Shown: positions 32,024-35,458, counted from the first letter of the stretch. The stretch: 64,000 nt of DNA from Bacteroidales bacterium (GCA_963678785.1 OY787449.1:528801-592800), one strand, 5' to 3'. The notes: generated from the letters alone by a model not told the origin. A program made the numbers and translations.

Positions 32024-33640
32024 TTAATTTCTTTTGCGCTCTTTTAAATTATATACTTCACCTGAATATAAAACAATTGGATCGCCTATTTCCAAAAACG
32101 GAGTATTCCATACCTTTTGATTTTTTAAATCATAAAATGTTACCGCGTTTTTTCCCAGCACCTTAGCATCTGTTCCTTGCACAAAAAGAGCAGTTGCCTC
32201 ATCTATACCAATACCTAACATTTGAGGATGTTTCATCAAAAGTGTTGGTAAAGTATATTCGCGTCCGCGCTGACGGAAATGAGCATCAATTATAACACCA
32301 CGTATAAAACTTAAACCTAAGTCATTACCTTCCATCCATAATGTATCATTTGTCCTAGGATCACCACGAACTAAGAAGTCTCCAAGAATCTGCGCTCCAG
32401 CGGATGAACCCACAATAATTCCCCCACGCTCCAGCAATCCATTCATTTTCACTTGAGCCTGAGTACCAACATAGGAATCCATATATTTATAAGTACGGCC
32501 ACCACCAAAATATAGCATATCTGCATTTTCAATGGCTTCAAGAAGAGCAGGATCATTAACATTTTGTACCCCATTGCTATTTTCGCTAACAACATAAACA
32601 GATACATTGGTACATCCTAAATCTTTCAATTTTTCTGCACCTGTAGAACTTTCTGTTTGTGTTAAACATACATATTTTGCATCTACTCCTCCTGAAAATG
32701 CTACAACATCTTCCCACATATTTTCCGGATAACCACTGCCTCCGATAATCATTAAAGCTCCCTTGGCAACTTCCGGAACAGGAGCAACTGTTGGAGGAAA
32801 TAGATCACCAAGTCGCGCAATTGCAGACCGATTCCAAGAAACTAGATCTGTGCTGTAAGGAAGATTGTCGTAAGAACGATTGTTTACTTGTTTAAATGTA
32901 GCAACTCGTTCATTCCATTCTCCATTTGCCGCTACTTTTATTGTAATCTCATTATCACCTACAACAGATATTTGGCGTCCTTTATATATGACAACAGATC
33001 CGCCTGAGGGGATTTCCCAACCAATTCGCCCAGGTAAATGATCAATTATCTCATTAAATTGATCATTATCAGTTGCATGAACATATGAATTTGATAACAA
33101 TCCAAATCCTTCTCTAATCTCATGGCCATCTTTAACAAAACTAGCCAATCCTTCGGCTGCTTTCCCCTGACCACCAACGGTTCTGCATTTCCTAAATAAC
33201 ATTTTGATTTCATCATTTAGTTTGGTTCCAGCAAATCTTTTTGAAAGATCATTCTCTAACCATAATGCAGTCGCCGTTTTAAATACTGCTAAATCGGCTG
33301 AACCCAATTCTGACTTGGATTCATCTAACTCAATAATTACAACCTCTCCAAATAAATCCTGCCACAAGGATGAAATATTTTGATTGCTTCCATCAGTCAG
33401 AACAATCAGTTTTCCATTTTTCTCACCAGATAAATAAGCAAAAGTTGCTGCATCATTAGATGTTATTTCTCCAGTACCAATTAACATGAGTTTACCGTGT
33501 GTCCACGAAATCTTAATACTAGGCTCATCAGACTCAACTGAATGAGTTACTTCTTCACTTTTTCTACATGAACTGAAAATAAGAATAACCGAGGTGAATA
33601 TAGCGATGACTATACTCTTAAAATTTATATTCATTTTCAT
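32024..33640 (-). CDS. Exported lipoprotein with tandem S51 domains: degenerate N-terminal domain plus catalytically intact cyanophycinase-type C-terminal domain
   Basis: 538 aa with lipobox ..IFSSC. The C-domain carries GSSAGAQ (Ser), IIDAHFRQRGR (His) and GIGIDEATA (Glu), matching the cyanophycinase Ser-His-Glu triad context. Confidence 0.8.
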   Translation of the reverse strand: MKMNINFKSIVIAIFTSVILIFSSCRKSEEVTHSVESDEPSIKISWTHGKLMLIGTGEITSNDAATFAYLSGEKNGKLIVLTDGSNQNISSLWQDLFGEVVIIELDESKSELGSADLAVFKTATALWLENDLSKRFAGTKLNDEIKMLFRKCRTVGGQGKAAEGLASFVKDGHEIREGFGLLSNSYVHATDNDQFNEIIDHLPGRIGWEIPSGGSVVIYKGRQISVVGDNEITIKVAANGEWNERVATFKQVNNRSYDNLPYSTDLVSWNRSAIARLGDLFPPTVAPVPEVAKGALMIIGGSGYPENMWEDVVAFSGGVDAKYVCLTQTESSTGAEKLKDLGCTNVSVYVVSENSNGVQNVNDPALLEAIENADMLYFGGGRTYKYMDSYVGTQAQVKMNGLLERGGIIVGSSAGAQILGDFLVRGDPRTNDTLWMEGNDLGLSFIRGVIIDAHFRQRGREYTLPTLLMKHPQMLGIGIDEATALFVQGTDAKVLGKNAVTFYDLKNQKVWNTPFLEIGDPIVLYSGEVYNLKERKRN

Positions 33641-33785
33641 CTTTTGTATTTCACAGATTTTCTAAATATTGTTGGTATTTATATAGCTCTTTTAGTTGTT
33701 ATCTATTGATAATAATTAGCGAATCAGATTTAGAAAATATTAAACTAGTTTATAGCTTTAGTAGATTATAATCTGATTTAAACAT

Positions 33786-33840
33786 AAAAAGAGGAGAACG
33801 ATCAAGAATTTATTTCACCCATGATATGATCATTCTCCTC
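33786..33840 (-). terminator. Possible intrinsic terminator after the 33863..35458 gene (14-bp stem, long loop, T5 on the minus strand)
   Basis: GAGGAGAACGATCA (33791..33804) pairs with TGATCATTCTCCTC (33827..33840) with one mismatch. Confidence 0.45.
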
Positions 33841-33862
33841 CACATTTATTAACAACCTAACC

Positions 33863-35458
33863 CTAATAAATCTTTTTGCGATCTTTCATATCATACTTCT
33901 CACCAGAGCTCAAAATCAAAGGATTACCCACTTCCAACAATGGCGTATCATTAGCACTAGTGTTTGTGAGATCATAAAATGTTACTTCATGTTTCCCCAT
34001 CACTTCGGCAATGTTTCCTTGAATAAAAATAGCCGTTGCTTCGTCTAAACCAATACCGAGCATTTGGGGATACTTAAGCAATAACGGCGGTAAAGTTTTT
34101 TCGCGGCCTCGCTGGCGAAAATGGGCATCAATAATTACTCCCCGGATAAAACTTAAGCCCATATCATTGCCTTCCATATACAAACTATTGTTTGTTCTTG
34201 GATCACCACGCACTAAAAAACCACCAACTATCTGAGCTCCCGCAGAGGTACCCACAATAATTCCACCTCTTTCTAACAACTTATTCATCTCTTGATGAAC
34301 TGGAGTATCAAGGTAAGAATCCATATATTTATAAGTTCGTCCTCCCCCAAGGTAAACCGCGTTAGCCTTTTCTAAATCTTGGAGAAGCATTTTATCGTAA
34401 CCATCAACTGCCATGCCTTTGCCAATAACATAAACACTCACATCATCACAGCCAAATCCTCTTAATTTTTCTGCTCCAACACTTCTTTTGGTTTGAGAAA
34501 TACATACATATTTTGCTTCCTTTCCACCGGCAAATTCAATCATTTTATCCCACATATCTTGGGTTGATCCTCCACCACCAATTATTAACAAAGCGCCATT
34601 AGGTACTTCTGGTACTGGAGCCACTCTTGGCGGAAAGAGCTCACCTAAGCGAGCTATTCCAGATCGATTCCATGAGATTAAGTCTGTTGTGAATGGAAGA
34701 TAATTTACAGGAGGTCCAAAGGAAGCTACTCGTTCAGGCCATTCTCCATTCTTTGCAACTCGAAGGGTTATCTCAGGATAGCCAATCACAGAAATTTGAC
34801 GACCATTATGGACAACAACCGAAGCTGAAGTCGGTATATGCCAACCAACTTTTCCAGGAAGTTTCTCCAGGGTTTTGATGAGGTGATTGTTTCCATCATC
34901 AGTCGCTTCGATATAAGAATTGGGTAGCAGATTAAATCCATCTCGAATTCCAGTAGCATCATCAATAGATGTTGCAATACTCTCGGCTGCAATTCCTTGT
35001 CCTCCCACAATTCCACCACGTTGAAGCACTGCTAATAGCTCACTTTTTAGTTCAGAACTGATTAAATACTTTGAAAAATCATATTCAAGCCATACTGCTG
35101 TTGAAGCTCTAAGTCCTGCAAGATCAGATAAAGTGAGTTTCGTTTTAGATTTTGTCAAATGAACCATCTTTACAGTTCCAATTCGCTTTTGCCATGGTTG
35201 CAGATTCTTGCTCTTAATTTTACCTCTTTTAGTCAAGATTACCAGTTTCCCAGTTTCCTCCTTCGCCAATTTAGCAAAGGTAGCCCCTACACTTGCTGAC
35301 ATTTCTCCAGATCCTACCAGCATTAACTTACCTTTAATTGTTGAAACAAGTTCTCTTGAAACCGTTTGTTGTGCAATTAAATTTAAGTTAAAAGTGAAGC
35401 ACATTAAACCAGTAAGCAGAAAAACTAGCAAACTTCTAATTTGAGTTGATAATTTCAT
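33863..35458 (-). CDS. Secreted paralog with the same tandem S51 architecture (pseudo-domain plus cyanophycinase-type domain)
   Basis: 531 aa with a signal peptide. The C-domain carries GTSAGAQ, IIDAHFRQRGR and GIGLDEATA. It is roughly half identical to the 32024 product by eye. Confidence 0.8.
   Translation of the reverse strand: MKLSTQIRSLLVFLLTGLMCFTFNLNLIAQQTVSRELVSTIKGKLMLVGSGEMSASVGATFAKLAKEETGKLVILTKRGKIKSKNLQPWQKRIGTVKMVHLTKSKTKLTLSDLAGLRASTAVWLEYDFSKYLISSELKSELLAVLQRGGIVGGQGIAAESIATSIDDATGIRDGFNLLPNSYIEATDDGNNHLIKTLEKLPGKVGWHIPTSASVVVHNGRQISVIGYPEITLRVAKNGEWPERVASFGPPVNYLPFTTDLISWNRSGIARLGELFPPRVAPVPEVPNGALLIIGGGGSTQDMWDKMIEFAGGKEAKYVCISQTKRSVGAEKLRGFGCDDVSVYVIGKGMAVDGYDKMLLQDLEKANAVYLGGGRTYKYMDSYLDTPVHQEMNKLLERGGIIVGTSAGAQIVGGFLVRGDPRTNNSLYMEGNDMGLSFIRGVIIDAHFRQRGREKTLPPLLLKYPQMLGIGLDEATAIFIQGNIAEVMGKHEVTFYDLTNTSANDTPLLEVGNPLILSSGEKYDMKDRKKIY

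Follow-up and report, generated by a model that had tools for sequence, protein, structure and literature searches.

The characterised enzymes of peptidase family S51, PepE, CphB and MccG, all act on Asp-containing substrates (PMC9239234). PepE (1FY2, 6A4R) and MccG are single-domain enzymes of the cytoplasm whose substrates are dipeptides or an isoaspartyl-nucleotide, and CphB of Synechocystis (3EN0, 7UQW) is likewise single-domain and cytoplasmic, with about 270 amino acids (aa). Six CphB residues, Gln101, Asp172, Gln173, Arg178, Arg180 and Arg183, are given as critical for cyanophycin hydrolysis (Law 2009, as cited in PMC3235067). CphE of Pseudomonas anguilliseptica / P. alcaligenes is a Sec-exported serine hydrolase with which non-producers scavenge an external Asp-based polymer (PMC3235067); it has about 420 aa, one S51 domain (Ser171/His224/Glu251) and five of the six CphB pocket residues, and no second S51 domain has been described in it. 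Here we analysed a stretch of 64,000 nucleotides from Bacteroidales bacterium (GCA_963678785.1 OY787449.1:528801-592800), called the window below, which carries two adjacent genes for S51 proteins of 538 aa (P0001) and 531 aa (P0002). The two paralogues are 52% identical end to end, and each has a predicted signal peptide followed by two S51 (class I glutamine-amidotransferase-like) domains, the N-terminal one without the catalytic triad and the C-terminal one with it, joined through a conserved linker of some 30 residues. In contrast to CphB, PepE and MccG, they are two-domain proteins and, judging from their leaders, exported.

The solved S51 proteins matched by these sequences in the PDB have 229-291 aa each, so that both paralogues are about twice as long as the characterised S51 enzymes. 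An earlier reading of this DNA made without database searches (the sequence-only reading) had put both proteins at about 535 aa and their single-domain relatives, cyanophycinases and dipeptidase E, at 230-300 aa; the open reading frames (ORFs) and the solved structures agree with these figures. Standard annotation sees the C half only. Pfam PF03575 (Peptidase_S51) scored 50.7 bits in P0001, where the match spans aa 338-494, and 50.2 bits in P0002, for a cut-off of 23.9, and the matches of PF03575 and NCBIfam TIGR02069 were confined to residues ~310-513. Sequence matches in the PDB covered residues ~290-526 and no others (7UQV, E 2.8e-16; 3EN0, E 2.9e-14; 7UQW, 6NQC and PepE). Scanned directly with Pfam and NCBIfam, the N half gave zero matches.

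Four independent and more sensitive lines of evidence identified the N half as an S51 fold. We aligned 112 full-length homologues and split the alignment at the linker into an N profile (aa 40-262) and a C profile (aa 285-538). Compared with hhalign in local mode, the two profiles matched over 192 columns with a probability of 100% and E 4.7e-44, against E 0.09-0.73 for ten column-shuffled control profiles, and the register reproduced the motif pairs that the sequence-only reading had matched by eye between the two halves. With the N halves of the degenerate clade only (clade A, see below), the comparison with the C half still gave E 6e-22. Searched by phmmer against 1.84 billion representative proteins, the N half alone retrieved, besides family members, single-domain proteins at E 1e-5 to 1e-6, among them the Pfam S51-positive P0136, P0137 and P0145. 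A profile (A3) built from 20 degenerate N halves matched 7UQV in the PDB at E 1.4e-6 over nearly the whole length of 7UQV. The AlphaFold model of the N half alone was confident (pLDDT 90.5, pTM 0.89) and all 15 of its PDB matches at E<=0.001 were S51 proteins, with TM scores of 0.54-0.79 (7UQV 0.79; 7UQW and 3EN0 ~0.75; PepE 0.54-0.61), the next match falling to 0.34. A profile search and a structure prediction had been proposed as checks: the former failed as a direct database scan but succeeded as profile-profile, phmmer and PDB-profile comparison, and the latter pointed to S51 alone. We conclude that the N half truly derives from an S51 domain and that its triad has been lost.

The full-length AlphaFold model of P0001 reached pLDDT 92.1 and pTM 0.88, and its best PDB matches were exclusively S51 proteins, with probability 1.00. 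CphB and the entry named 'pseudo-CphB' (7UQV) have their fold in common with both halves (Foldseek E 1e-11 to 1e-17); the full-length model covered their chains at TM 0.73-0.79, and the N-half model was itself covered at TM 0.74-0.79. The pTM of the full-length model indicates a fixed relative arrangement of the N and C halves, which, according to this prediction, very probably form a rigid pseudo-dimer.

The catalytic residues are found in the C half. The triad consists of Ser413 (codon 32402-32404), His454 (32279-32281) and Glu481 (32198-32200) in P0001 and of Ser405, His446 and Glu473 in P0002, set in the motifs GxSxG, D-x-H-F and G-I-D-E respectively, and it is complete in 110 of the 112 homologues. 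In the N half of P0001, Gly159 occupies the nucleophile position, the loop bearing the histidine is deleted and Ser212 stands at the glutamate position. A triad lost in the N half and kept in the C half had been predicted by eye, and both predictions stand; the lack of Ser, His and Glu makes the N half a pseudo-peptidase member of the S51 fold. It also lacks the four-residue loop with the equivalent of CphB Gln101, and the segment equivalent to Arg178/Arg180/Arg183 is deleted or replaced. Unlike CphB, the N half thus retains no catalytic residue at all.

The C half resembles CphB in its Ser-His-Glu triad, its GxSxG motif and its D-x-H-F-x-x-R-x-R motif, which includes the equivalents of Asp172, Arg178 and Arg180, and it shares the S51 fold and the triad with PepE and MccG (as well as Asp-containing substrates, if its probable function discussed below is correct). 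When the six pocket residues were mapped through the HMMER alignment to 3EN0, with their roles taken second-hand from PMC3235067, the C half of P0001 read T383, D452, A453, R458, R460 and T463; three of the six are kept, whereas Gln101, Gln173 and Arg183 are replaced by Thr, Ala and Thr. The same positions are substituted throughout the C halves of clade A (Gln101 to Thr, Gln173 to Ala/Val, Arg183 to Thr/Ile/Pro), while the equivalents of Asp172, Arg178 and Arg180 are invariant in the C halves of the whole family. The cyanophycinase equivalog TIGR02069 has a cut-off of 126.6 bits, and P0001 and P0002 remained below it at full length, with 100.8 and 93.9 bits; the C half of P0001 alone scored 97.2 bits and its N half gave no match. 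NCBIfam PepE (NF003642, cut-off 156 bits) scored 32.3 bits for P0001 and 28.6 bits for P0002. We found no cyanophycin synthetase (CphA) in the genome that contains the window (4.10 Mb, one contig), the best match scoring 99.5 bits for a cut-off of 850, and a producer/consumer cycle of cyanophycin within this organism was rejected on that ground. The sub-threshold score, the three pocket substitutions and the absence of CphA together suggest that the C half is not a bona fide cyanophycinase. The 'cyanophycinase-type domain' of the sequence-only reading is supported as far as the closest family is concerned, but not as a functional assignment.

The two proteins belong to a large family. A word-indexed search yielded 322 clusters at E <= 1e-3 among the scored candidates, nearly all of 500-580 aa, and many of these tandem-S51 entries are machine-named 'cyanophycinase'. 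Within the linker, D265, R271 and R276 are invariant in the 112 homologues and are accompanied by an FPP motif. A maximum-likelihood tree of these homologues resolved two clades with 100% support. Clade A (n = 51) contains P0001, P0002, other Bacteroidota and Pirellulaceae (among them Rubripirellula, Rhodopirellula and Neorhodopirellula); the N-half triad is absent in 51/51 and the nucleophile is present in none. Clade B (n = 61) is apparently mostly planctomycetal, judging from its few source-named members and from most titled loci, and its N half retains Ser, His and Glu in 56/61, with a few sporadic secondary losses. Clade B proteins such as P0051 and P0111 have the same length, a signal peptide, the same linker motifs and a C-type C half, and are 28-34% identical to the proteins of the window over the full length. 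Their N halves scored 131-157 bits with TIGR02069, above the cut-off, against 121-133 bits for their C halves, and carry D-Q-H-F..R.R..R in 53/61; in their C halves Asp replaces Arg183 in 60/61. By these sequence measures the clade B N half is a more canonical cyanophycinase than its own C half. As it appears to be live, clade B proteins would have two different active sites and P0001 and P0002 one.

Conservation of the N half follows this division. Mean pairwise identity within clade A was 35% for the N half, 57% for the C half and 54% for the linker, compared to 52.5% and 58.7% for the N and C halves of clade B, which suggests that the N half was partly freed from constraint when catalysis was lost. 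At the same time the N half of clade A retains a conserved core, and the clade has N-side residues that are new with respect to clade B and each 88-100% conserved (G159, D131, W208, P211, H219, W242 and W269), W208, P211 and W242 being counted as invariant; the dead N half is conserved across two phyla. These features fit a pseudoenzyme domain, with the enzyme fold kept, the catalytic residues lost and a clade-specific conservation, as measured by identity. Larger architectures also occur: a tandem-S51 unit followed by a C-terminal ThuA domain, and an N-terminal trypsin-like protease and PDZ domain preceding the tandem-S51 unit (P0133, 756 aa; P0163, 886 aa).

The architecture is not rare. With the full-length profile, both halves were matched in ~19-20 of 300 Planctomycetota species genomes (~6%). 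At least 566 relatives were found in species-representative genomes, and the best 80 are mostly from Planctomycetota. The dead-N type is sparse around the window: its profile found the double-domain type in 1 of the 13 genomes of the genus, which makes up the whole family, namely the window's own genome, and, at E <= 1e-25, recovered no such protein from 400 genomes sampled evenly across the phylum. The literature searched offered no account of tandem S51 domains or of any double-domain S51 protein, and the family appears to be uncharacterised. The architecture is already present in databases, mislabelled, and is common in Planctomycetota under the machine annotation 'cyanophycinase'; the clade A N domain is invisible to Pfam and NCBIfam.

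In order to trace the origin of the two halves, we built a domain tree from 30 halves of each kind, N and C, together with 31 S51 proteins of a single domain. All C halves fell into one 100/100 clade, a distinct 'C-type' S51 subfamily, with stand-alone, putatively exported members branching below them, while the N halves of clade B were interspersed with other single-domain cyanophycinase-like proteins. These positions make a single fusion of two already diverged S51 paralogues more parsimonious than a duplication within the gene; the internal duplication proposed in the sequence-only reading is accordingly disfavoured, and the alternative of fission would require at least three independent events. 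A single-domain C-type protein is present in the genome itself, as a predicted 304-aa lipoprotein (C1:403808-404395) with the motifs GGRQW, SAGASIQG and DQH..R.R..D. Among single-domain proteins it stands nearest to the C halves; it is conserved in the genus and has Asp in place of Arg183. The genome has three other S51 genes in all, each single-domain. Within the domain tree the C halves of P0001 and P0002 are sisters (100/92), whereas their N halves and the full-length proteins lie in different subclades. A recent tandem duplication of the two genes was rejected, since they fall into different subclades of the full-length tree. The discordance may reflect an old gene conversion between the adjacent paralogues; with only ~76% DNA identity between their C halves, any such conversion was not recent.

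A hydrophobic N-terminal leader was recognised by inspection in 108 of the 112 family members. The leader of P0001 ends with LIFSSC25, followed by R-K-S-E-E, and that of P0002 with an A-Q-Q type end, as in most of the family. The single-domain S51 paralogue of the same genome carries the lipobox GFYSC, which supports the lipobox reading of P0001 in this organism. P0001 is thus a probable lipoprotein, and the proposed pairing of a lipoprotein with a paralogue bearing an ordinary signal peptide is plausible on the strength of these leaders.

Table 1. Tandem-S51 genes, their domains and the neighbouring features, in coordinates of the 64-kb window
Feature	Coordinates	Strand	Basis
Sodium:dicarboxylate symporter family, closest to DctA/GltP, downstream	30172..31413	(-)	Pfam SDF, 383 bits
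Dead third S51 copy, last ~167 codons of the C half	31503..32005	(-)	Repeats of 83-92% identity, DNA alignment, stop-to-stop frames
P0001, paralogue 1, tandem-S51, 538 aa	32024..33640	(-)	ORF
P0001 C-terminal S51 domain with triad, aa 294-538	32027..32761	(-)	Pfam, TIGR02069 and PDB matches
P0001 inter-domain linker, aa 263-293	32762..32854	(-)	Family-invariant columns
P0001 N-terminal S51-fold pseudo-peptidase domain, aa 44-262	32855..33511	(-)	hhalign, phmmer, profile against PDB, AlphaFold
P0001 leader, aa 1-25, ending LIFSSC	33566..33640	(-)	Hydrophobic segment and Cys25
P0002, paralogue 2, tandem-S51, 531 aa	33863..35458	(-)	ORF, Pfam
P0002 C half with triad, aa 288-531	33866-34597	(-)	
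P0002 linker	34598-34690	(-)	
P0002 N half, aa 38-256	34691-35347	(-)	
Class V aminotransferase, upstream	35489..36649	(-)	Best NCBIfam match L-aspartate-glyoxylate aminotransferase BhcA, below cut-off
DapA/DHDPS-family aldolase or lyase, upstream	36662..37546	(-)	Below DapA cut-off
AsnC/Lrp-type regulator, divergent	37696..38118	(+)	Conserved beside tandem-S51 in other Bacteroidota loci

The neighbouring genes suggest a context of aspartate-type metabolism. On the (-) strand the order is DapA-family gene, class V aminotransferase, P0002, P0001, dead third copy and symporter (Table 1), and from gene spacing only we infer that they may form an operon; the whole island sits between carB and pyrB. 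The symporter scored 215 bits with NCBIfam DctA and 174 bits with GltP, both below cut-off. In three other Bacteroidota loci (L001, L002 and L020) the tandem-S51 gene also lies beside a divergent AsnC regulator and an aminotransferase, the latter of class I/II and accompanied by a 2-hydroxyacid dehydrogenase or RidA, and once by SusC/SusD. In Rubripirellula and Neorhodopirellula a clade A orthologue, of the dead-N type and 42-43% identical to P0001, is found directly downstream of a leaderless Asparaginase_2 (isoaspartyl peptidase) gene. Isoaspartyl peptidase performs the second step of cyanophycin breakdown (PMC10206079). The other Planctomycetota loci inspected had no constant neighbour. The window's genome contains one Asparaginase_2 gene, unlinked to the S51 island. 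Elsewhere in the window (41134-52490) lie two complete rRNA operons in direct tandem, whose 16S, 23S and 5S matches have identical Rfam scores between operons; in both, tRNA-Ile and tRNA-Ala are followed by a third, weak tRNA-like match (37.5 bits).

The interval between carB and pyrB varies within the genus (L126, L127 and L128). In one species carB directly adjoins pyrB. Two others have pyrB, AsnC, the DapA-like gene and the aminotransferase, followed in the symporter/S51 slot before carB by a different block composed of an M18 aminopeptidase, DUF386, Amidohydro_2, Zn_protease, RimK, AstE/AspA, YitT and MscS. The M18 family includes aspartyl aminopeptidases. The M18/RimK/AstE-AspA block is absent from the window's genome, which has its own M18 gene elsewhere (C1:480632-481915). 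One of these two, a sister species (L128, genome G010, 11855-12006), retains a P0002-type relic adjoining the orthologous class V aminotransferase, in which the first 15 codons are in frame with the last 36 and ~480 codons are deleted, indicating that the tandem-S51 gene is old in the island and is being lost in relatives.

The island of the window also contains remnants. The dead third copy begins abruptly at the FGGGRTYK codons, where it is fused to an intergenic motif found 3' of each intact copy, and is frameshifted by a 1-nt deletion near 31853. It is mostly near-identical to P0001 while its last ~25 codons resemble P0002 (GNPIILSSGEKYDL), which makes it a mosaic. A second, mini-relic of ~100 nt downstream of the symporter (~29892-29990) is 86-92% identical to the S51 3' end and the intergenic junction. 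Directly after P0002 (33790-33840, (-) strand) a hairpin, GAGGAGAA...TTCTCCTC followed by TTTTTAT, resembles an intrinsic terminator; its long loop explains why a consensus terminator scan missed it. The GGAGGAG motif of the hairpin region recurs after P0001, at the recombination junction of the dead third copy. A scan for sigma-70 promoters and terminators gave 38 sites against 33 expected from shuffles, with a consensus unsuited to Bacteroidota promoters, and was not used.

Taken together, the evidence makes it moderately probable that P0001 and P0002 are exported, one-site, pseudo-dimeric S51 serine exopeptidases acting on aspartyl or beta-aspartyl units and feeding a gene string for aspartate-type uptake and catabolism. 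The substrate assignment draws on the Asp-containing substrates of known S51 enzymes, on the Asparaginase_2 adjacency in Pirellulaceae and on the DctA/GltP-like and BhcA-like neighbours, as well as on the M18 aminopeptidase found in the same slot beside the aminotransferase in sister species. A paper by Yadav et al. (2018), known from its title in PMC9239234, places the active site of PepE at the interface of the dimer. By analogy, in the fused hetero-pseudo-dimer the dead N half would stand in for the second protomer, scaffolding and completing the single active site. The enzymes would act in the periplasm or on the cell surface, P0001 being membrane- or surface-tethered as a lipoprotein and P0002 soluble, and would clip aspartyl units from external peptides; the likeliest substrates would be beta-aspartyl or cyanophycin-like, the pocket being altered. 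Released Asp or Asp-dipeptides could be imported by the DctA/GltP-like symporter and catabolised by the co-oriented aminotransferase, through transamination, and the DapA-family enzyme, under the control of the divergent AsnC/Lrp regulator. Several observations weigh against this proposal. The C half scores below the cyanophycinase equivalog cut-off (97-101 vs 126.6 bits) and, of the six residues reported as critical for hydrolysing cyanophycin, has only three, there is no cyanophycin synthetase in the genome and its sole Asparaginase_2 is unlinked, and all the neighbouring catabolic genes are below their family cut-offs. The neighbours moreover differ among loci (class V vs class I/II aminotransferase, DapA-like protein vs 2-hydroxyacid dehydrogenase), and the terminator-like hairpin stands between P0002 and P0001.

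The same scores bear on the possibility that P0001 and P0002 are true extracellular cyanophycinases, equivalents of CphE that scavenge cyanobacterial cyanophycin and whose pocket changes leave specificity unaffected. Their nearest solved and curated relatives are indeed cyanophycinases, they have putative export leaders, an Asparaginase_2 gene adjoins the orthologue in Pirellulaceae, and the genome combines the lack of CphA with the presence of an isoaspartyl peptidase, like those of known CphE-type scavengers (PMC10206079, PMC9974463). The TIGR02069 deficit and the replacement of Gln101, Gln173 and Arg183 nevertheless set them apart from CphE, which retains five of the six residues (PMC3235067), and the best sequence match, 7UQV, was named 'pseudo-CphB' by its depositors, which suggests that CphB relatives need not degrade cyanophycin. 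We therefore regard this explanation as doubtful.

The contribution of the N half could also go beyond structure. As a substrate-binding 'reader', it would hold a polymer such as cyanophycin or polyaspartate and feed it to the C-half site, conferring processivity. The former active site looks remodelled, with 92-100% conservation of G159, W208 and P211 in clade A, and not simply eroded, the ancestor-like clade B has a canonical cyanophycin-type pocket in the same half, and those extracellular cyanophycinases that have been characterised show tight binding to their insoluble substrate (PMC3235067). However, with the Arg178/Arg180/Arg183 segment and the Gln101 loop deleted or replaced, the known substrate-contacting residues are gone, and substitutions have accumulated clearly faster in the N half than in the C half; such a role seems unlikely. 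That the N half has no function and is left over from a two-site enzyme, kept since its excision would unfold the protein, in paralogues that are decaying accessory genes, would agree with the recombination-prone locus with its frameshifted third copy and mini-relic, with the 15 plus 36 codons left in the sister species and with intact copies in 1/13 genus genomes, but is highly improbable, as both genes are intact, the N-half model is a confident one, and the dead-N clade spans Bacteroidota and Pirellulaceae with N-half residues conserved and newly fixed.

We also put forward, as speculative, a stepwise history of the family. A canonical cyanophycinase and a 'C-type' S51 enzyme (Arg183 to Asp) would have fused into a secreted two-site machine. 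In one lineage, made up of Pirellulaceae and some Bacteroidota, the cyanophycinase site would later have been silenced and remodelled into a non-catalytic module that acts as partner or handles the substrate. The surviving C-type site would then have a specificity not yet described for S51, for instance for a different poly-amino-acid, beta-aspartyl or branched, present in the debris of algae or cyanobacteria.

S51 enzymes have so far been studied as single-domain homodimers (PepE, CphB, CphE and MccG), and the present family shows what is probably a fused, exported, hetero-pseudo-dimer form. Its members make up a natural series, running from proteins with two live sites to proteins in which one site is live and the other half is a pseudo-peptidase, and offer a clean system to study what the partner protomer contributes in S51. 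The family also reveals two annotation problems: hundreds of 'cyanophycinase' entries have two domains and, at the conserved site, lack residues reported as critical for hydrolysing cyanophycin, and Pfam and NCBIfam miss the N domain throughout clade A. If the substrate is cyanophycin or another Asp-based polymer, these proteins would be relevant to the turnover of nitrogen polymers by Bacteroidota and Planctomycetota of the sea. If the fused two-site and then one-site history is true, they would constitute a new class of depolymerase, used by marine polymer degraders on poly-amino-acids outside the cell.

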